UHGV virus genome: UHGV-0060065
Reading direction: 5' to 3' (one strand)
DNA length: 24,468 nt
DNA from: a virus
A model generated the notes under the pieces. That model saw nothing but the letters and a program-made list of their open reading frames with translations. It did no database searches and was not told where the DNA came from. The translations under genes were made by a program, and so were the position numbers. Shown here piece after piece: positions 4,220 to 14,192 of the stretch (positions are counted from its first letter, which is position 1; each line of letters starts with the position of its first letter).

Positions 4220-4419
4220 ACAAAAAGACCTGGTTTCGCGCATACATGTGGGCGCTGGTATGCGTCATCGTCTCTCTCATTCTGTATGCAGGACTACTCC
4301 CCCGAATGATTTCATCAGACAGCTCCTTCCTGGTATTGCTGGGCATTTTCATTGCCATGCTGTACCCGGCAGGCGTTGTTCGCCTTTTCAGTAAGTACAT
4401 CAAGGAAATCAAACAATGA
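4216..4419 (+). CDS. Small two-helix inner-membrane protein (67 aa), likely partner of the downstream SPFH protein
   Basis: Two hydrophobic segments (WALVCVIVSLILYAGLL and FLVLLGIFIAMLYPAGVV). ATGA overlap with the upstream gene and with the SPFH gene start. Confidence 0.6.
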   Translation: MNKKTWFRAYMWALVCVIVSLILYAGLLPRMISSDSSFLVLLGIFIAMLYPAGVVRLFSKYIKEIKQ

Positions 4420-5246
4420 AGAAATTCAAACTCTTTCAGATTCTCCCGCTTTTTGCCGCCATCCTGCTGGTTGGCTGCGATCGCGTTGAGCCAGGTAATG
4501 TGGGCATCAAAGTCAACAAGCTGGGCGACGACAAAGGCGTTGGCGAAGTGGTTGGCGTTGGCCGCTACTGGACTGGCTGGAATACAGAGGTTTACATCTT
4601 CCCGACCTTCAAACAAATGAAGACCTACGATGAGCCGTTCAGCTTCCAGATGAGTGACGGCACAACCATCGGCTATCACATCGGCGTGGCTTACAAGGTT
4701 GATCCATCCAAAGTTACCACAGTGTTTCAGACCTACCGCAAAGGCGTGGATGACATTACCGACACTGACCTGCGCCAGAAGATCGCCGATGCACTCAACC
4801 GACTGGCCAGCAAAATGACCACCGATAAGTTTATCGACGGTGGTAAGTCTGAACTGCTGGATTCAGCACTTAAAGATATTCAGGAAGAGATGACCCCCAT
4901 CGGCATTCAGGTCATGAGCCTCTCTTATGTCGGTAAACCGGAATATCCGCCAACCGTTATCGACAGCATTAACGCCAAAGTCACGGCAAACCAGAAAACC
5001 CTGCAACGCGAACAGGAAGTCAAGCAACGCGAAGCTGAAGCCAACATGTTGCGCGCAGAAGCTGCCGGACAGGCTGATGCCATTCGCACAAAAGCCCAGG
5101 CTGAAGCTGACGCCATTCGTTTACGCGGTGAAGCTCTGCGCCAGAATCCCGGCGTTATGGAGCTGGAAGCAATCAACAAATGGAACGGCACGCTGCCGCA
5201 ATACATGACCAGCAATACTGCTGTTCCGTTTGTTCCGGTGAAGTAA
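4416..5246 (+). CDS. SPFH/band-7 (stomatin-prohibitin-flotillin-HflK/C) family lipoprotein
   Basis: Signal peptide with lipobox (AILLVGC). The body resembles a band-7 domain, and the C-terminus is an Ala/Glu/Arg-rich coiled coil (QREQEVKQREAEANMLRAEAAGQADAIRTKAQAEADAIRLRGEALRQ) typical of SPFH proteins. Confidence 0.75.
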   Translation: MKKFKLFQILPLFAAILLVGCDRVEPGNVGIKVNKLGDDKGVGEVVGVGRYWTGWNTEVYIFPTFKQMKTYDEPFSFQMSDGTTIGYHIGVAYKVDPSKVTTVFQTYRKGVDDITDTDLRQKIADALNRLASKMTTDKFIDGGKSELLDSALKDIQEEMTPIGIQVMSLSYVGKPEYPPTVIDSINAKVTANQKTLQREQEVKQREAEANMLRAEAAGQADAIRTKAQAEADAIRLRGEALRQNPGVMELEAINKWNGTLPQYMTSNTAVPFVPVK

Positions 5247-6288: not shown

Positions 6289-9111
6289 ATGACGGCAGAG
6301 TACATCAGGGACTGGCAACAACCGCGCCACGCAGTGGGGCGTGAAGGAACGGGGATCCCCGCTCCTGAATCCGCGCTTTCCTCCTGGCTGGATGCCTACC
6401 GGGCAGAGAACGAGCGCCGCCAGGAAATGGCTGATGCGGCGTTCTCCGCCACGCCGCTGGGCAACCTGATTAATAAAAGCCTGGACGCACAGGAAAAACA
6501 GGACAAAACCATCACACTGGCAGGAGACGCCAGAAAACAGGCACGCGGCGCGGTGGATGAAGCCATGGCCTCGCTGCGCCTGCTGCCGTCCTATCTGCGC
6601 GATCCGCTTATTCGCCACCTCTCCTTCCTTCGCAAAAAACAGGAAGCCGATCGCCGGAAAGGCAAAAAGAGCTGGCAGGCGGAACGCTATGCACGCGGAA
6701 CCCTGCGCAAAATATTCGAACGTCTGGATCGCACTGACGGACGCTGGCTGACACCGGGTTATCGCTCCCTTGCCGGACGCGAACGCCTGGACGATTTGCT
6801 TTACCTGCCGCAGCTCAACAAACACCAGATACAGACGCTGGCCACCATGACGGCAGCGATGTTCAGCAGCACCTTCGAAAAACTCTGCGATGGCTTTGGC
6901 GCGACTGATGGCGAACTGACCATGGATGTAACGCTGAAGGCGTATCAGATGCTGGCCCGCATGGCGTTACACCTGCACGCCATGCCTCCACATTATGACG
7001 CACTGACAACAGACAAAGACCGGAGGAACGAACCGGACACAGAGCTGCTGCCGGGCGCAATCCTTCGCCTGACCTGTGCGGAATGGTGGAAACGCAAACT
7101 GTGGCTGTTACGTTGCGAGTGGAGAGAAGAACAACTCCGCGCCGCCTGTCTGGTTTCCAGAAAAACATCGCCCTATCTGAGCCAGGACGCGTTAAGCGAG
7201 TTTCGCGCACAGCGCGAGAAAACACGCGATTTCCTGAAAAGTTTCATGCTGGAAAACGAAGACGGGTTCACGATTGATCTCGAGACAGTGTATTACGCGG
7301 GAGTAAGTAACCCGGTTCACCGTAAGGCAGAAATGATGGCCACCATGAAGGGACTGGAACTTCTGGCCGAAGCCCGTGGCGACAGAGCGGTGTTTCTGAC
7401 TGTCACCTGCCCGTCAAAATACCACGCAACAACGGAGAACGGTCATCCGAACCCCAAATGGAACGGGGCCACCATGCGCGACTCCAGCGATTACCTGGTT
7501 AACACGTTTTTTGCGGCGGTCCGCAAAAAACTGAACCGCGACGGCCTGCGCTGGTATGGCATCCGCACGGTGGAGCCTCACCATGACGGCACCGTGCACT
7601 GGCATATGATGGTCTTTGCTCATCCGGAAGAAATCGACAGCATCGTGGCCATCACCCGCGATATTGCCATTCAGGAAGACCGCCACGAGCTGGGCAATGA
7701 TATTACTCCGCGCTTTAAGGTGGAGTATGTCGACGGCTCAAAAGGCACACCAACCAGCTATATCGCGACCTACATCGGAAAAAACCTGGACAGCCGCGCC
7801 GTGGATGGCATCGACCCGAAAACGGGCAAGCCACGCGTTGACCACGAAACCGGAAAATCAATGGCCGAGAGCGTGGAGCGCGCCATCGGCTGGGCGCGTC
7901 TTCACCGGGTCCGCCAGTTCCAGTTCTTTGGCATCCCCTCCCGTCAGGTATGGCGTGAACTCCGCCGCCTTGCCAGCCAGATGGCACGCAACCCGGAAGG
8001 CCCGCAACGGCTGAAGGATGATGCAATGGATGCGGTACTCGCTGCCGCTGATGCCGGGTGTTTTGCCACCTACATTGAAAAACAGGGTGGCGTACTTGTT
8101 CCACGCAAGGACTACCTGATTCGCACAGCCTACGACCTCGCAGATGAGCTGAACGATTACGGCGAACAGAGTGTACAGATTTACGGGATCTGGTCGCCAC
8201 TCATCGGGGAATCCTCCCGTGTGTGCACGCACCCGGATAACTGGAAGCTGGTAAGACGTAAACCGGAAGCGGAAGACAGCACCCACGAAAATGGTTTTGA
8301 CCTTCAGGGCGGCCCTGCCGCCCCTTGGACTCGTGGCAATAACTGTCCCCGTGTACAGGAAACGGACAACAACGGGACAGAACAGCCGGAAGAACGGCCA
8401 GCACCGTGGCCGCAGCTCCCTGACGGCGTTGAAGTGAACGAATGGATGCGCTCACTGAAACGGCACGAACGCCGGGCGCTGATGCGTTCGCTTCGTGACA
8501 AACAGGCAAAAAACAGCAGCGATGAAATGCAGAGCTGGACACAGAGCCGCAAACAGCAGCGGCCTTTGCCTGATAACCACGAATTACTCGCTAAAGAATG
8601 GCGGGAGTCTGCCGAATCTCTCGGCCTGCATATCGGTGAACAGCAGATGCAGCACCTGTTACGGGGCGGCAGCCTGTACGTTGACGGCAGCATCATTGCA
8701 CCGCAGGGGTTTGAAATTGTACGCAAACCGGATACCCGACCGGACAGCCGGATCACGCAGCTCTGGCAGCGCCTGAGCCGTAACCACGGCGTAAGCAGCA
8801 CGGAGATCCGCCATAACCCGGTCGCAAGCTATCTGGAACAGCTGGGGGCATCAGACCCCGAAGCCGCCGCACGCCTGGCATCCACACTTCAGCAAGACCA
8901 GAACACCATGAAAACACCCGTTACCGTGCTTTCTGACATGCTGCGTGCCATCCGCGACGCAGAGCACGCACAGAGAATCAGTGAAACCACTGAACGCGCC
9001 CGCCGCAAAGCAGACCTGCTGCGGGGTGGCCTGACCATTGGAAACAAAAAACAGACAGAAACGGGATTCACAAATCCCGTAAATGAGCAAAAAACGCGCC
9101 GCGATATATGA
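6289..9111 (+). CDS. A: Rolling-circle replication initiator (P2 gpA-like HUH endonuclease), 940 aa
   Basis: HUH motif (GTVHWHMMVFAH) and paired catalytic tyrosines (TSYIATYIGKN) are present, and the position matches P2 gene A. It is longer than I recall P2 A to be (about 760 aa), with a long C-terminal extension. Confidence 0.88.
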   Translation: MTAEYIRDWQQPRHAVGREGTGIPAPESALSSWLDAYRAENERRQEMADAAFSATPLGNLINKSLDAQEKQDKTITLAGDARKQARGAVDEAMASLRLLPSYLRDPLIRHLSFLRKKQEADRRKGKKSWQAERYARGTLRKIFERLDRTDGRWLTPGYRSLAGRERLDDLLYLPQLNKHQIQTLATMTAAMFSSTFEKLCDGFGATDGELTMDVTLKAYQMLARMALHLHAMPPHYDALTTDKDRRNEPDTELLPGAILRLTCAEWWKRKLWLLRCEWREEQLRAACLVSRKTSPYLSQDALSEFRAQREKTRDFLKSFMLENEDGFTIDLETVYYAGVSNPVHRKAEMMATMKGLELLAEARGDRAVFLTVTCPSKYHATTENGHPNPKWNGATMRDSSDYLVNTFFAAVRKKLNRDGLRWYGIRTVEPHHDGTVHWHMMVFAHPEEIDSIVAITRDIAIQEDRHELGNDITPRFKVEYVDGSKGTPTSYIATYIGKNLDSRAVDGIDPKTGKPRVDHETGKSMAESVERAIGWARLHRVRQFQFFGIPSRQVWRELRRLASQMARNPEGPQRLKDDAMDAVLAAADAGCFATYIEKQGGVLVPRKDYLIRTAYDLADELNDYGEQSVQIYGIWSPLIGESSRVCTHPDNWKLVRRKPEAEDSTHENGFDLQGGPAAPWTRGNNCPRVQETDNNGTEQPEERPAPWPQLPDGVEVNEWMRSLKRHERRALMRSLRDKQAKNSSDEMQSWTQSRKQQRPLPDNHELLAKEWRESAESLGLHIGEQQMQHLLRGGSLYVDGSIIAPQGFEIVRKPDTRPDSRITQLWQRLSRNHGVSSTEIRHNPVASYLEQLGASDPEAAARLASTLQQDQNTMKTPVTVLSDMLRAIRDAEHAQRISETTERARRKADLLRGGLTIGNKKQTETGFTNPVNEQKTRRDI

Positions 9112-9156
9112 AGCGCGCATAAAACAGGCAAAAACGGGATTTCAGAATCCCGTAAA
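9059..9156. repeat. Two 25-bp near-identical direct repeats, each an 8-4-8 palindrome (ACGGGATT-N4-AATCCCGT); candidate parC/operator
   Basis: Copy 1 (about 9059-9083) lies in the last codons of A. Copy 2 (about 9132-9156) lies in the A-parM intergenic region about 30 bp upstream of the parM RBS. The copies match at 21 of 25 positions and start 73 bp apart. Confidence 0.5.
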
Positions 9157-9187
9157 CGATTAATTAATCAACATAAGGAAAAGCGAC

Positions 9188-10147
9188 ATGAAAATTTGTA
9201 TCGACGACGGCTCCACCAACATCAAGCTGGCATGGACTGAGAACGGCGAACGCCGCAACGCCATCAGCCCGAACAGCTTCAAGTCGGAATGGTCTGCGCC
9301 GTTCGGTGGCACGCAGCCCGCGAACTACATGCTTGATGGCGTGCGCTATGGTTTTGATCCGGTCAGCGATCGCTTTGTCCAGACGACCGACACGCAATAC
9401 CAGTACAGCGATGTGAATGTCATTGCCATTCATCACGCGCTGGTCAAATCAGGCATCACGCCACAGGAGGTGGATGTGGTTGTCACCCTGCCACTGAGCG
9501 AGTATTTCGACACAAACGCACAGCCGGACATGGCCAACATCAACCGCAAAAAAGCGAACGTTATGCGTCCGGTGGAGTACCAGAACGGCGAAGCATTCAC
9601 TATCCGTAACGTGCGGGTTATGCCTGAATCCATTCCGGCTGGCTTTAAGGCACTGGCTGACATGAGTCCGTTTGAATCCCTGCTGATTGTGGATTTGGGC
9701 GGAACCACGCTGGATGTGGCAAAGGTTCAGGGACAACTGGCAGGTATCAGCCAGGTGTTTTGCGATCCACACGTAGGCGTTTCCCTGATGGCCGATGCCG
9801 TACTGTCGGTGATGGCCACTAACGGTATGCGTACCAGTCACCACATCGCCAACACCATTATCGAACATCGCCATGATGAAGCCTGGCTGCGCCAGCACAT
9901 CCACAATGGCGCGCATTACGACAGCCTGATGGCGGTTATTCGTGAAAAGGAAGAGACACTGAAACAACGCGTGATCCGCGCGCTGGCGGTTTTTTCGGGT
10001 TACGGGCGGGTGATGGTTGTAGGTGGAGGAGCAGAGATTGTGGCACCCGCTATCCGCGAAGCCTGCGGAGTTAATGCGACTTTCATCGCGGACGGGGTGC
10101 CACAGTTTGCTCTGGTTAATGGGCTGTACGCAATGGACAAGGAGTAA
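9188..10147 (+). CDS. parM: Actin-like segregation ATPase ParM/StbA family
   Basis: The translation matches remembered plasmid R1 ParM along its whole length (MKICIDDGSTNIKLAW, ISPNSFK, QYSDVNV, HHAL, VMPESIPAG, LLIVDLGGTTLD, VMVVGGGAE, LVNGLYAM). RBS AAGGAAAAG. Confidence 0.85.
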   Translation: MKICIDDGSTNIKLAWTENGERRNAISPNSFKSEWSAPFGGTQPANYMLDGVRYGFDPVSDRFVQTTDTQYQYSDVNVIAIHHALVKSGITPQEVDVVVTLPLSEYFDTNAQPDMANINRKKANVMRPVEYQNGEAFTIRNVRVMPESIPAGFKALADMSPFESLLIVDLGGTTLDVAKVQGQLAGISQVFCDPHVGVSLMADAVLSVMATNGMRTSHHIANTIIEHRHDEAWLRQHIHNGAHYDSLMAVIREKEETLKQRVIRALAVFSGYGRVMVVGGGAEIVAPAIREACGVNATFIADGVPQFALVNGLYAMDKE

Positions 10148-10151
10148 ACCA

Positions 10152-10463
10152 ATGACGACACCAACCAGACGGATAAGTTTCTATCTGAAGCCCGCCGCCG
10201 TCAAGAACGAAGGCGAAGCATGCGCCTGGCTGGACAGCCTTACACCAGAAGCCCGCAAAAACGGCCAACGTGTGGCTTTTCTGGCCGGGCTGGCACTTCT
10301 GAAAATGAATCCGGCAGAGGCTTACCGACTGGCTGCATGGGCTGACGATGAGGCGTTGTCGGTGACACAAACCAGGACAGAACGCCCCGCGTCACAGCCA
10401 GTATCAACCGCACAGATAACCAGTCAGATGGCCGGAAATATCCGGGCGTTATTTCCCGAATAA
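10152..10463 (+). CDS. parR: ParR/StbB-like ribbon-helix-helix centromere-binding protein (103 aa)
   Basis: An AAGGAG RBS sits 7 nt upstream of the ATG at 10152, which lies 5 nt after the parM stop. The N-terminus (RRISFYLKP...LDSLTPEARKNGQRVAFLAGLALL) and C-terminus (NIRALFPE) resemble R1 ParR. The ORF-track entry 10023..10463 includes a spurious N-terminal extension overlapping parM. Confidence 0.6.
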   Translation: MTTPTRRISFYLKPAAVKNEGEACAWLDSLTPEARKNGQRVAFLAGLALLKMNPAEAYRLAAWADDEALSVTQTRTERPASQPVSTAQITSQMAGNIRALFPE

Positions 10464-10468
10464 CACAA

Positions 10469-10492
10469 CATCAGGGCGCATCCGCCCTGATG
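10469..10492 (+). terminator. Hairpin after parR (CATCAGGGCG-CATC-CGCCCTGATG), terminator-like with a weak U-tract
   Basis: Perfect 10-bp inverted repeat with a 4-nt loop, 6 nt after the parR stop. The following T-tract is poor (ACTTTAAT). Confidence 0.35.
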
Positions 10493-10526
10493 ACTTTAAT
10501 CCGGGAACATAAACAAGGGGGACACA

Positions 10527-10862
10527 ATGCAACACATTGACAGAGAAAAAGCGCAGCGACTGATTGAGCGAATGGAAGCGCTGGCGAAAGAAGAAAATGT
10601 CAGCATCCAAAAAATAGCTGAATGTGGCCAGATAGTTCTTCGTCGTGAAAAAGACATCAAGCAACTGATGTCTGGCGAAATCAGCAAAACATGGACTTCA
10701 GGCAAGAAGACGATTTATTGCAGCTTCTGCAATAAATCCCAGCACAAAGTCATAAAGGTGATTGCCGGACCGTCTGTTTACATCTGCAATGAGTGCGTGG
10801 ATTTGTGCAATGAAATTATCAAGGGAGAAGTGACAGACCATGAAGAAAAAACGCATGAATGA
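10527..10862 (+). CDS. Small protein with a C-terminal ClpX-type C4 zinc-binding domain (zf-C4_ClpX-like), 111 aa
   Basis: Residues about 73-106 ([36 protein letters not shown]) are nearly identical to the E. coli ClpX N-terminal zinc-binding domain ([36 protein letters not shown]), with all four Cys conserved. The preceding 60 aa are unrelated to ClpX. Strong RBS (AAGGGGGA). Confidence 0.75.
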
Positions 10863-10922
10863 CGAATTTGACGGCTTTTAATTTTATCGGGGTGCACTGT
10901 CGCCCCGCACGAGGAAAACACG

Positions 10923-11447
10923 ATGAAAAAATACGAATACATGCTAATGAAAGAAGCACTGCGGGCTGGTCTGGCTCCCTGTCCTGTATCCGTAGAAGCT
11001 GTTGTTGGGAACACGATTTTCCGAACGCTGCGAAATCGCGTATCCGTGAAGATGATTCACCAACCACCCAAATCTACCAGCATGATCTATCTGCCGCTGC
11101 CCGAGGCTATCAAACTTATGCGTTCGCTGAAATTTGCGATTTGGATGCAGACACAACTCAACAAAGCGGTGCAAAACACCTTCGTTAAGAAACTGATGCC
11201 GGAGCTTGCTGCCAGAAGTGCAAAATGTACCAGACCCGCACTTCAATTTGATCTGTCATTGATTCAACAAGCTACGGAGGCAGAACTGTACCGCCTGTCA
11301 CCTCTCCATGATGCTCACACGGAAGCCTCAGAAATGTTCCGGCTCATGTTTCAATTTAATTTTGCCGTTCGACGCACACGCATTCAGGTCAATCGCATGA
11401 TGCAGGCGCAGGAAGAGCTGACGCAACACAAAGGAGGCAACCAGTGA
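10923..11447 (+). CDS. Hypothetical protein (174 aa), predicted mostly helical; likely co-transcribed with the ZBD protein
   Basis: ORF with a GAGGA RBS, 60 nt downstream of the ZBD gene. No motif was recognised. Confidence 0.55.
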   Translation: MKKYEYMLMKEALRAGLAPCPVSVEAVVGNTIFRTLRNRVSVKMIHQPPKSTSMIYLPLPEAIKLMRSLKFAIWMQTQLNKAVQNTFVKKLMPELAARSAKCTRPALQFDLSLIQQATEAELYRLSPLHDAHTEASEMFRLMFQFNFAVRRTRIQVNRMMQAQEELTQHKGGNQ

Positions 11448-11619
11448 GCAAAATTGACTATCAGGCATTACGCGAGGCGGCACAAAACTATCAATCGACG
11501 CTGGCGTGGTATGAGGTTGACGCGGGCTAGTTTTGCCGCAAGGATAATTCGTTTCAGCGGGTGATTTTTTGCGCTATCATTCCGGCAGTGGTTCACGATT
11601 ATTGGCAGGAAAGGCAATT

Positions 11620-12213
11620 ATGAGCAGTAAAAAAAATAAAATAACATCTATGGCCGCAGCGCTGGCGGTGGCTCTCGCCCCTGTTCCTGCCAGTAGCATT
11701 GTGCATCATGACTTATCAATCTCCCGGCACAGTACGTCTACGCTATCCCTCCAGGACGTAAAGGATTCTGTGGCATACCTTCCTATTGATGAGGCCACCA
11801 GTTATATGCTTAACCTGGCTGATAGGATGAAGACACACAGGGCAAACCTTCGCATCGAATGGGAAGAAAAGCAGATCCCTATTATTCTGAAAAATCAGAA
11901 AAAAGAGACTCAGGAAGGGTTTGAAAGCCTTTTCCGTCATATTGCGGTATGTGCAAGTTTTGTCGAGGCTGCAAGGGTTGCGCTGAAAAGCGTACCTGAA
12001 AGTAACGCGGAACTGAGAAAAGAGATTGTCGCTTTTGCTCGTTCCGCTGCGACGCTCCGCTATACGATTGAAGATATTTTATCCTTCATTGAAAGCACGC
12101 ATGTGCCGAAGAAAACTTCAGATGCTGATCTGGGTGTTACCGCCGATCAGGTTCGCGCACTTATCCGCAGTGAACATAAAAAGCTGGGCCTTAAAGATCC
12201 AACGTTCCATTAA
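11620..12213 (+). CDS. Hypothetical protein (198 aa) with hydrophobic Ala-rich N-terminus; candidate partner/antitoxin of the downstream YafO-like toxin
   Basis: The internal ATG at 11620 has an AGGAAAGG RBS; the ORF track starts earlier at 11569. The N-terminus (MSSKKNKITSMAAALAVALAPVPASS) is signal-peptide-like. It ends 9 nt before the toxin start. Confidence 0.5.
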   Translation: MSSKKNKITSMAAALAVALAPVPASSIVHHDLSISRHSTSTLSLQDVKDSVAYLPIDEATSYMLNLADRMKTHRANLRIEWEEKQIPIILKNQKKETQEGFESLFRHIAVCASFVEAARVALKSVPESNAELRKEIVAFARSAATLRYTIEDILSFIESTHVPKKTSDADLGVTADQVRALIRSEHKKLGLKDPTFH

Positions 12214-12222
12214 GGCAGGGCC

Positions 12223-12603
12223 ATGATTAAAGTCTCTGTCCACAATGACATAGAACTCCCCGCAGTTGCTCGTAAATATGCACATGCTTTGCAGTCATGG
12301 AAAAACGGCGGATCTTTACCCTCAGTCTTTGGCAACGAAGGGCAGTGGGAAGATAGCGGGCGTCTTCGTGATTCTTTTGTTTTTAAGATTCACATTCGTT
12401 TACCTGATGAACAGCCGTGGCCTGCAAAGCTACCTGCCGCCTCGCGTAAATCAAACAGTTATCTTGTTTACTCCCGCCATTTCTTATATCCAGATAAGTA
12501 TCAGCTAATCAGCATTATGACACCCAATGCGCATGAGTTAGCCCGTACATCCTACATGGCAGAAATTGAGCGCAGAGCAGAAGAGTTCCAGTCTTCTTTT
12601 TGA
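12223..12603 (+). CDS. YafO-like toxin (type II TA, ribosome-dependent mRNA interferase family), 126 aa
   Basis: Similar length to E. coli YafO, with shared motifs: GSLPSVFG vs GVLPDIFG, KIHIRLP vs HIHLANE, SYLVYSRHF vs AHLVYCQGAF, LISIMTPNAHELAR vs LIAILKPEPHKLAR, and the AEEF C-terminus. The alignment is from memory. Confidence 0.6.
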   Translation: MIKVSVHNDIELPAVARKYAHALQSWKNGGSLPSVFGNEGQWEDSGRLRDSFVFKIHIRLPDEQPWPAKLPAASRKSNSYLVYSRHFLYPDKYQLISIMTPNAHELARTSYMAEIERRAEEFQSSF

Positions 12604-12645
12604 GTTTTGCGACGACTATCTATCAATCCCTTACTAATCTGAAAA

Positions 12646-12672
12646 GCTGCCTTTTGAAGGCGGCTTTTCTTT
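12646..12672 (+). terminator. Intrinsic terminator after the YafO-like gene (GCTGCC-TTTTGAA-GGCGGC followed by TTTTCTTTC)
   Basis: GC-rich stem with one G-U pair followed by a T-rich tract, about 40 nt after the stop. An A-run precedes it, so it may act in both directions. Confidence 0.5.
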
Positions 12673-12759
12673 CTTCCTGGCCTTCTTTCTCTGTTGCACA
12701 ATAGTGCACAAATTTGCACAATTTTTTTGAACGACTTTTTACCCTTCCGGCCCGCATGG

Positions 12760-13000
12760 CGGCTGGATCCGTCAAGGATCCGTGCGCGCACAAAAAAACG
12801 CGCTTTTTCTGCGCGCAGGTGACGGGGGAACAGCCCGCGTTTCAGGGGGTAAATAGCATCCCCTGAATGATGTCGCAGCGACACAACAGAATGGCTGTCT
12901 TTCTCACGCTGAGCGTGAAGAATACGTGAGGGATTCTGATTTGATGGAGTGAAAGGTAAGGCCGTCAAAATCGCACTGAGGCGGCGAGAACATGCAGTCA
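12760..13000. other. cos / packaging region (candidate cohesive-end site and terminase-recognition repeats)
   Basis: The position between the cargo and the Q stop matches P2 cos. It is dense in repeats: GGATCCGT direct repeat, GTGCGCGCAC palindrome, a 13-bp imperfect inverted repeat GCGCGCACAAAAA/TTTTTCTGCGCGC, and TTCAGGGG-N11-CCCCTGAA. A GC-rich motif GAGGCGGCGAGAAC at about 12978-12992 partly resembles the P2 cos core as I remember it. Confidence 0.4.
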
Positions 13001-13094
13001 GCGCAGTGGGATTGCGTAAGAGTCTGACCGTCGATGATGGCAATAAGCAGGAAAGCGTCGTGAAATTATCTGACTGATACAGGAGCTGGAGAGT

Positions 13095-13119
13095 CGGGGC
13101 ATAAATTTTTTATGCCCCG
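13095..13119 (-). terminator. Perfect 11-bp inverted repeat (CGGGGCATAAA-TTT-TTTATGCCCCG) just downstream of Q; probable terminator of the P-Q operon
   Basis: Palindrome about 30 nt beyond the Q stop on the minus strand. The stem-loop is AT-rich in the middle. Confidence 0.4.
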
Positions 13120-13145
13120 GCGAAGCAGCAGACAAGCGAAGCGCG

Positions 13146-14192
13146 TCAGGATGTGGGCTGGGTATCTAACAGTGCGTAAGGGTTAAAGCGGATCACCTCT
13201 TCGCCAAGCCAGTCATTGATGTGCTTCATGGCCTCCATGACGGGCATCAGCTCGTTAATTGCGTAAACCCGCGCGGCCTTCTCCACATCACCAAACGCAC
13301 TTTTTTCGCCCGGCATCGCCCCCATCAGTTGCGGCGGAACGCGGTGCGCAGCCAGCACATCATCACGGGATGCCGCCTTAACATTCATGAACTCATCTTT
13401 TGCGGTGATCTGCTGGAACGGCAAAATTTGCACCCCCTCTTTGCCCCCGTTGGGCGCATGAATGAGCACGTTTTTAAACGCACCACCACCACGTGCCCCC
13501 TGTAGCGTTTCTTTCAGGGAGTCCATGCTTTCGCGGTTTACCTGCGCTGCACCGATGTAGATGATGCACCCGGCGTGGGATCCGTTGTCGTAGTACAGTT
13601 TTCTGAACATGTCCGCCGAATGAGAAAGGCTGGCCGAGAGTAATGCGCCAAGATATTCCGGCATGCCGTAGATTTCCTGGTTAATATCCGGATTCATCAG
13701 GTGGCACACTTTGCCAGGACGAAACTGGAACGCGTCCTTGCCATCCTGCACATACCACCATGATTCAAGATCGCTTCCGCGTCGCATGTATTTCGCCAGG
13801 GCGTGCCGTAATTTAAGCGGTTCGCCGAGCATATTGCTTCGAAGCTCAAGGAATGCGTTACCGAACACAAACCAGTCCAGCGCCAGCGCCGAGAAATCCT
13901 GCCGGGAAAGCAGCGGGTGCGGGATGTAGCAACCGAGTAATACATTGCGCTTAAAGTAAAGCGCAGACTGATGCCAGGACGTTTGCCGGGCAGCTCTTGC
14001 CAGACCGTACCAGTCCACCGGGGTTTCATACCACCGCCCGTTATCAGCACAGTACATATTGTCCAGCAGGTCATGCCCGGTCAGGCGATAAGGACCATCA
14101 AATGTGAATGCACTGAGCGATGATTCTTTCCTGAGCGCATCAGCGAGATCAATGCGTGAACTCATGCGCACTTTTTTATTTTTTCTGCTCAT
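13146..14192 (-). CDS. Q: Portal (capsid vertex) protein, P2 gpQ-like
   Basis: 348 aa, close to P2 Q in length. It sits immediately downstream of and overlapping terminase P on the minus strand, adjacent to cos. Confidence 0.88.
   Translation of the reverse strand: MSRKNKKVRMSSRIDLADALRKESSLSAFTFDGPYRLTGHDLLDNMYCADNGRWYETPVDWYGLARAARQTSWHQSALYFKRNVLLGCYIPHPLLSRQDFSALALDWFVFGNAFLELRSNMLGEPLKLRHALAKYMRRGSDLESWWYVQDGKDAFQFRPGKVCHLMNPDINQEIYGMPEYLGALLSASLSHSADMFRKLYYDNGSHAGCIIYIGAAQVNRESMDSLKETLQGARGGGAFKNVLIHAPNGGKEGVQILPFQQITAKDEFMNVKAASRDDVLAAHRVPPQLMGAMPGEKSAFGDVEKAARVYAINELMPVMEAMKHINDWLGEEVIRFNPYALLDTQPTS

Follow-up and report, generated by a model that had tools for sequence, protein, structure and literature searches.

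Several bacteriophages encode proteins which modulate the AAA+ proteases of their hosts, such as PinA of T4 and Gp4.5 of T7 (Lon), CIII of lambda (FtsH) and Gp53 of SPO1 (ClpC). These share with the protein described here the concept of a phage product tuning host proteolysis, but they concern other proteases and are unrelated in sequence, and to our knowledge none of them is a captured domain of the protease itself. The anti-adaptors IraP, IraM, IraD and IraL, which are small and often horizontally acquired, spare sigma-S from ClpXP by blocking its delivery, leaving the protease itself uninhibited. The mode of action proposed below is analogous, although there is no kinship in sequence or fold: the Ira proteins bind RssB through folds of their own, whereas here a mimicry of the ClpX docking site is proposed, through which several adaptors or substrates could be affected. 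No homology to anti-adaptor or protease inhibitor families (Ira, PinA, CIII) was found with Pfam, PHROG or NCBIfam. Another comparison is offered by CsfB from Bacillus subtilis (PDB ID: 5N7Y), also a small treble-clef zinc-finger protein, which is dimeric and acts by binding only (PMC5890618); it is about 20% identical to ClpX, has a different interface chemistry and no known role in the ClpX pathway. In ClpX, the hydrophobic region around F16 and I46 of the zinc-binding domain (ZBD) is the binding site for lambda O, SspB, RssB and trigger factor (PMC7804408), and the N-domain is required for the recognition of MuA, FtsZ and adaptors, but not of the ssrA tag (PMC5415555). The isolated E. coli ZBD, supplied in trans, inhibits RssB-mediated breakdown of sigma-S by ClpXP (PMC7226468). 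With regard to phages, Mu replication is impossible in clpX null hosts (PMC3325207), and ClpXP controls prophage induction in S. aureus (PMC10584840).

The stretch of DNA analysed here (the window, 24,468 nucleotides) is a prophage from E. coli, P2-like and of the Xuanwuvirus P88 type (Peduoviridae). Its region 9100-13200 is 99% identical to a prophage located beside pheA in E. coli CDE6306 (L001), and the stretch 10400-10950 matches phage P88 at about 95% identity as far as the stop codon of the gene under study (the ZBD gene). The gene order leads from the integrase, past an SPFH protein and an Ash-like gene, to the gpA replication endonuclease (6289-9111), ParM (StbA; 9188-10147, + strand), a StbB/ParR-like gene (10152-10463, +), the ZBD gene, and ORFs of 174 aa (10923-11447, +) and 197 aa (11620-12213, +), then to a YafO-family toxin (12223-12603, +; Pfam E = 2e-27), after which come the portal gene gpQ (13146-14192, −) and the terminase gene, both on the opposite strand. 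This integrated P2-like prophage thus has a plasmid-type partition pair (ParM/StbB-ParR-like) immediately 3' of gpA. With 9100-13200 as the query, the ParM-ParR region has matches in about 1,480 of 5,426 complete E. coli genomes. In P2-like phages, the stretch from gpA to gpQ is known as a variable hotspot, where P2 itself has old and tin and where many defence systems are found in other cases (PMC9122126). The location in prophage cargo given in the initial annotation is in agreement with this, as the ZBD gene lies between gpA and the portal gene, in an interval whose content varies across E. coli genomes. Table S5 of Rousset et al. 2022 (PMC9122126) lists this exact cargo arrangement, with the 197-aa ORF and YafO as system 123 (“YafO_toxin”, 24 loci) and the ZBD gene left out, and there is no sign of an assay of the ZBD gene in that study. 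The 174-aa ORF has no match in Pfam, PHROGs, NCBIfam or PADLOC. The 197-aa protein has a hydrophobic N-terminal stretch and is far bigger than the YafN antitoxin, and the YafO gene starts 9 nt downstream of it.

Both edges of the cargo are marked by predicted hairpins. On the left, a 10-bp GC-rich hairpin (10469-10492, strand not set; fold of −23.6 kcal/mol, z = −3.7) separates the ParR-like gene from the ZBD gene, and the homology with prophages which do not carry the ZBD gene ends at this hairpin, at about position 10489. It is followed by only a weak T-tract on the + strand, and may be an attenuator, a recombination boundary or a minus-strand terminator. On the right, two convergent hairpins resembling intrinsic terminators (12641-12669 on the + strand and 12798-12816 on the − strand) separate the cargo from the portal gene, and presumably insulate the rightward transcription of the cargo from the leftward Q-P late operon. 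The SPFH/Band_7 protein (4416-5246, + strand; Pfam E = 6e-31) has a lipoprotein signal peptide (MKKFKLFQILPLFAAILLVGC, lipobox LVGC), and its gene belongs to the conserved backbone of P88-type P2-like phages, not to the hotspot cargo. It had been paired in the initial annotation with the ZBD protein as a second modulator of host AAA+ proteases; the pairing is not retained, as we found nothing linking this backbone lipoprotein to FtsH or to the ZBD protein.

The ZBD gene (10527-10862 on the + strand, stop codon included) is complete and intact according to the ORF list, PHROG 6797 and the names of the NCBI orthologues. It starts with ATG and codes for a standalone ClpX-ZBD protein of 111 aa; a Shine-Dalgarno-like AAGGGGGA, read from the sequence, is found at 10515-10522 on the same strand, 4 nt before the start codon. 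Four parts can be distinguished, all encoded on the + strand: a family-specific N-terminal helical hairpin (10542-10670; helices at aa 6-23 and 27-48), a linker of variable length and low confidence (aa 49-62; 10671-10712), the ClpX-type C4 zinc-binding domain (aa 63-101; 10713-10829), and an acidic C-terminal tail (10830-10859). The tail differs between alleles (...TDHEEKTHE or ...TDKKGKNA), the latter form being found where the downstream gene overlaps. The AlphaFold2 (AF2) model, built from nine sequences, has a mean pLDDT of 74 and consists of two helices, the low-confidence linker and a zinc ribbon, followed by a C-terminal helix. The protein ends 10 residues past the ZBD helix, and no AAA+ module is present anywhere in the ORF, so that the absence of an ATPase, already remarked upon before this analysis, is not in doubt. 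Likewise, the models for full-length ClpX (TIGR00382 / PRK05342) reach 48.5 bits against NCBIfam cut-offs of 359-371, and the match is limited to model positions 3-53. Compared with ClpX, then, the ZBD is placed C-terminally in a phage-encoded protein of 111 aa which lacks the linker-AAA+ module, the pore loops and the IGF loop, and which therefore can neither unfold substrates nor dock ClpP.

Judged by profile and structure comparisons, residues 63-101 are a genuine ClpX ZBD and a bona fide member of PF06689. The zf-C4_ClpX profile matches aa 64-99 (model positions 2-38 of 39) with E = 3.1e-17 and 62.6 bits against a cut-off of 27, so the assignment to the ClpX type that had been made by eye is also significant by profile. 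A phmmer search of the PDB returned the E. coli ClpX ZBD structures 1OVX and 2DS5 (E of about 1e-18 to 5e-19). With Foldseek, the AF2 model of the domain (pLDDT of about 77-82 in this region) was superimposed on 2DS5, 2DS6 and 2DS8 with an rmsd of 0.7-0.8 Å, a target TM of 0.88-0.91 and 75% identity. The model shows a predicted ClpX-type treble clef in which the zinc ligands, the hydrophobic core and the F16/I46-type patch are retained, that is, the same domain as the N-terminal ZBD of E. coli ClpX (1OVX, 2DS5-2DS8), with its four cysteines and hydrophobic patch. The zinc-ligand cysteines (C65, C68, C87 and C90) are all kept and are invariant across the family alignments. The counterparts of ClpX F16 and I46 are F67 and I97, of which the former is invariant and the latter nearly so in the alignment of the subfamilies.

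A codon-by-codon comparison with E. coli K-12 ClpX gives 30 identical residues out of 39 in the core (77%) and 78 identical nucleotides out of 117, while the nucleotide identity to clpX is 70% over 104 nt. The domain had been described as a nearly exact copy of that of ClpX, which holds for its identity and for the four cysteines, but overstates the closeness, given the nine core residues that differ. Within the Y13-I47 core of ClpX, the differences are limited to G18N, E23K, R25I, L27V, D37N and D45E, all of which are at the surface or conservative. Only 12 of the 30 third positions at identical degenerate residues match K-12 clpX. It is the protein sequence, and not the DNA, that has been kept relative to clpX, and 77% amino acid identity in spite of saturated synonymous sites indicates long-term selection on a ClpX-like surface. 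The possibility of a pseudogenised fragment of the host clpX was considered and ruled out on the grounds of these third positions, the intact ORF, the conserved N-terminal fusion and the position of the gene, which is in the gpA-gpQ hotspot of a P2-like prophage with a pheA-side integration and not in tig-clpP-clpX-lon.

The family to which the protein belongs is already known. It is a full-length member of PHROG 6797 (E = 5.4e-56, aa 1-105 on profile positions 5-106 of 107), with no structural difference from the other members; the window allele is a mosaic (see below). Its orthologues, such as AIZ95127 of phage P88 (88% identity) and orf93 of phage D6 (49-51%), carry the NCBI name “ClpX C4-type zinc finger protein” (formerly “carboxylate--amine ligase”), and the arrangement is found in Table S5 of Rousset et al. 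2022; no function is assigned in any of these sources. The novelty of a standalone ZBD protein was therefore overstated at first, and what is new is the functional hypothesis, not the gene. On the other hand, the remark that no characterised phage protein has this architecture agrees with our searches of the literature readable without subscription, which yielded no paper on a characterised standalone ZBD or on a phage inhibitor of ClpX.

Among 5426 complete E. coli genomes, 112 (about 2%), UTI89 being one of them, carry the P88-type gene. The stretch 10400-10950, into which the 3' end of the ParR-like gene extends, has matches in 491; this difference indicates that the ZBD gene is cargo and not backbone. 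Homologues with 38-57% identity occupy the same slot between gpA and the portal gene in Salmonella and other P2-like phages without ParMR, and in the Salmonella phages they are the sole or near-sole cargo. In D6-like phage-plasmids, homologues are found among early accessory genes of the ea22/eaA type. In one of the phage-plasmids, PhiR41_1 (L007 7820-8209), the ZBD homologue is followed at a distance of about 3.5 kb by a UmuD homologue, which may be a coincidence; UmuD delivers UmuD' by docking on the ClpX ZBD. A scan of genome contigs for the host range mostly returned genuine betaproteobacterial ClpX.

Taken together, we consider that the protein probably interferes with ClpX-dependent proteolysis. 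Our leading proposal, held tentatively and with somewhat less than even confidence, is that it would act in trans as a decoy for the ligands of the ClpX N-domain, selectively dampening the adaptor- or N-domain-dependent action of ClpX. We infer this from the inhibition exerted in trans by the isolated E. coli ZBD (PMC7226468) and from the retention of the F16/I46 equivalents. Expressed from the prophage, the protein would compete with ClpX for N-domain ligands, namely the XB-type motifs of SspB, RssB and UmuD, and substrates of which MuA, lambda O and FtsZ are examples. The effect would be to lower those ClpX(P) activities that depend on adaptors or on the N-domain, while direct degradation of the ssrA type would be spared. 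The hairpin could provide self-association, and hence avidity, or an added specificity contact. Candidate pay-offs are a block of Mu-type replication, the stabilisation of sigma-S in the manner of an anti-adaptor, or the stabilisation of a ClpXP-labile regulator or antitoxin; since the gene occupies the P2 gpA-gpQ hotspot as a single-gene cargo, the benefit would probably lie in phage-phage or phage-host conflict.

The absence of a constant neighbour and the independent recurrence of small ZBD-only proteins in other phages are in favour of such a decoy. Against it, the affinities between the ZBD and its ligands are weak (micromolar), and a decoy would for this reason need substantial expression or avidity; a promoter scan gave no sigma-70-like site between 10100 and 13200, and the models of PADLOC-DB 2.0 do not recognise the protein (zero matches for it and for its three downstream neighbours). 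The defective copies discussed below, which suggest that some lysogens can dispense with the gene, also count against it, as does the conserved N-terminal hairpin, which has no obvious use in a pure decoy.

This hairpin is specific to the family. It is modelled with a pLDDT of 76-89 over aa 11-40, compared with less than 50 for the linker at aa 53-59, where relatives from Salmonella and from L081/L082 carry insertions of up to about 11 residues. Its residues E17, E23 and R40 are nearly invariant across subfamilies. A phmmer search with aa 1-60 against 1.8 billion representative proteins returned 10 clusters, every one of the same family, in line with the initial view that this part is unrelated to ClpX. 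Pfam gave only noise for the N-terminal 60 aa (NAF, E = 0.16), NCBIfam nothing extra, and Foldseek no fold match for the hairpin in the PDB or BFVD; the only PHROG match is the unannotated full-length family 6797 itself. Conservation of the hairpin across subfamilies goes beyond the needs of a simple decoy, and speaks for a plug-in adaptor or poison subunit, although we consider it unlikely. The ZBD would then form heterodimers with the ZBDs of ClpX, as the dimer-forming core is identical and the changes in the Y13-I47 core are all at the surface or conservative, and would tether the hairpin to the ClpX hexamer, with the result that ClpXP is redirected to a target bound by the hairpin, or that the three native ZBD dimers are disrupted. 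The combination of a constant ZBD with a variable, unrelated extension in the viral-contig proteins described below resembles the logic of adaptors and speaks for the same explanation. The native ZBD dimer, however, is reportedly tight and constitutive (work attributed to Wojtyra and Donaldson, 2003), so exchange may be slow, and any target of the hairpin is hypothetical.

Standalone ClpX ZBDs are not restricted to this family. Pseudomonas lambdoid phages carry a ZBD-only protein of 65 aa in the nin region (L009 2492-2689; examples are QVJ12445 of PSA04 and A0A9E7CCK4 of PP9W2). Contigs from IMG/VR (L093-L104), whose viral origin is as stated in the database, code for at least 10 proteins of 86-183 aa that combine PF06689 with an unrelated N- or C-terminal extension, none of which contains a second Pfam domain. 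The feature in common with the window protein is a standalone ClpX ZBD in the accessory regions of temperate phages; the difference is that these proteins lack the N-terminal hairpin or have unrelated extensions, and they appear to be independent captures. The small PF06689-only proteins on IMG/VR contigs and in phage records are not homologous outside the ZBD. The resemblance of these ZBDs to the ClpX of their likely hosts, judged by inspection, suggests repeated capture. A broader reading would be that phages repeatedly capture the ClpX N-domain and fuse diverse small domains to it, giving either plug-ins which form heterodimers with ClpX subunits and so change the choice of ClpXP targets, or single-gene exclusion factors which starve ClpX-dependent competitors such as Mu-like transposable phages. 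The window protein would then be the enterobacterial representative, of the P2/P1 type, in the P2 defence hotspot. We regard this generalisation as decidedly improbable.

The neighbourhood of the gene bears on whether the protein works on its own, as the favoured decoy would, or as one component of a multi-gene cargo, for example by modulating the 174-aa protein or the adjacent toxin-antitoxin. The neighbour differs from locus to locus: an overlapping ORF of 104-112 aa in P88-type loci, and elsewhere an XF1762/Mom-like gene, a convergent Phd/Doc pair, or the set of the 174-aa ORF and YafO. Some of these arrangements would suit a module. In the window, the two ORFs and YafO follow the ZBD gene up to the terminator at 12641-12669, the variant with the adjoining Phd/Doc pair brings in Phd, which is a ClpXP substrate, and the next gene overlaps the ZBD gene by ATGA in P88-type and PhiR41_1 loci. 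A further sign, of co-travel, comes from L021, a P2-like locus with a divergent allele. Between it and the window, which stand for two P2-like lineages, there is a breakpoint within the gene, at the boundary of the linker and the ZBD (window 10700-10862 against L021 5180-5333): the 5' half, which codes for the hairpin, is only about 55% identical, whereas from the first ZBD codons through the 174-aa gene the nucleotide identity is about 95% (94% for the 174-aa ORF itself). The window allele is thus a mosaic in which the half coding for the ZBD is nearer to the L021-type allele, and cargo exchange seems to use the conserved coding sequence of the ZBD for crossing over. In L021, however, the 174-aa gene is the only shared downstream gene, and it is in one recombination block with the ZBD half. 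A conserved partner gene was looked for and rejected, the downstream proteins of the window, P88-type, PhiR41_1 and Salmonella loci being mutually unrelated. Moreover, the gene is essentially alone in Salmonella P2-like phages, and the curation of Rousset et al. treats the 197-aa protein and YafO as a system without it. We therefore hold a cargo module to be very doubtful.

A marginally smaller probability is given to a binder of a target other than ClpX, in which the ZBD would serve as a dimeric module of the anti-sigma or anti-repressor type, or as a regulator of phage early functions or partition. There is a precedent in CsfB, the treble-clef dimer closest to the ClpX N-domain, which inhibits sigma factors (PMC5890618), and the gene comes directly after the early gpA-ParM-ParR block in P88-like phages and is among early “ea” genes in D6 and PhiR41_1. 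The low identity of CsfB to ClpX (about 20%) is nevertheless far from the 77% observed here, where the ligand patch is kept as well, and a core regulatory role is unlikely since most ParMR-bearing P88-like prophages do not have the gene (112 against 491 E. coli genomes).

Least probable of all is a near-neutral moron in decay, without a function at present in this lysogen. In the 99%-identical prophage of E. coli CDE6306, codon 72 of the sister copy of the ZBD gene is a nonsense codon (L001 13269-13457), and truncated or frameshifted versions are found in databases (P0010, P0017, P0018, P0123 and P0124), from which it follows that some lysogens at least can do without the gene; the window copy is nonetheless intact with all its cysteines, and both domains persist in Escherichia, Salmonella and other hosts even where the identity has fallen to 38-44%. 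In the L001 prophage, a decaying copy of the same prophage, gpA is frameshifted as well and IS66 is inserted in the integrase. Compared with the majority P88 allele, the changes of the window allele are mostly non-synonymous (H73, K74, I76 and others), which could be taken as a sign of decay but is explained by the intragenic recombination with the L021-type allele; the counts in the dN/dS table of alleles are tiny and the excess is due to recombination, so no selection is read from them.

The reading as a decoy for N-domain ligands may have consequences beyond the locus itself. ClpXP controls sigma-S, SOS mutagenesis proteins, several antitoxins, lambda O and Mu replication, and a phage copy of the adaptor-docking domain of ClpX would, if the proposal is true, be a compact and mechanistically transparent way of rewiring the ClpXP network. 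It would also be the first protease modulator described which acts by domain mimicry of the protease. As it concerns a single small ORF for which off-the-shelf assays exist, the idea can be tested cheaply. By inference, it could possibly be general beyond P88-type phages, and the presence of the gene in about 2% of E. coli genomes, UTI89 among them, and in Salmonella means that it may influence the stress physiology or the phage susceptibility of clinical strains.
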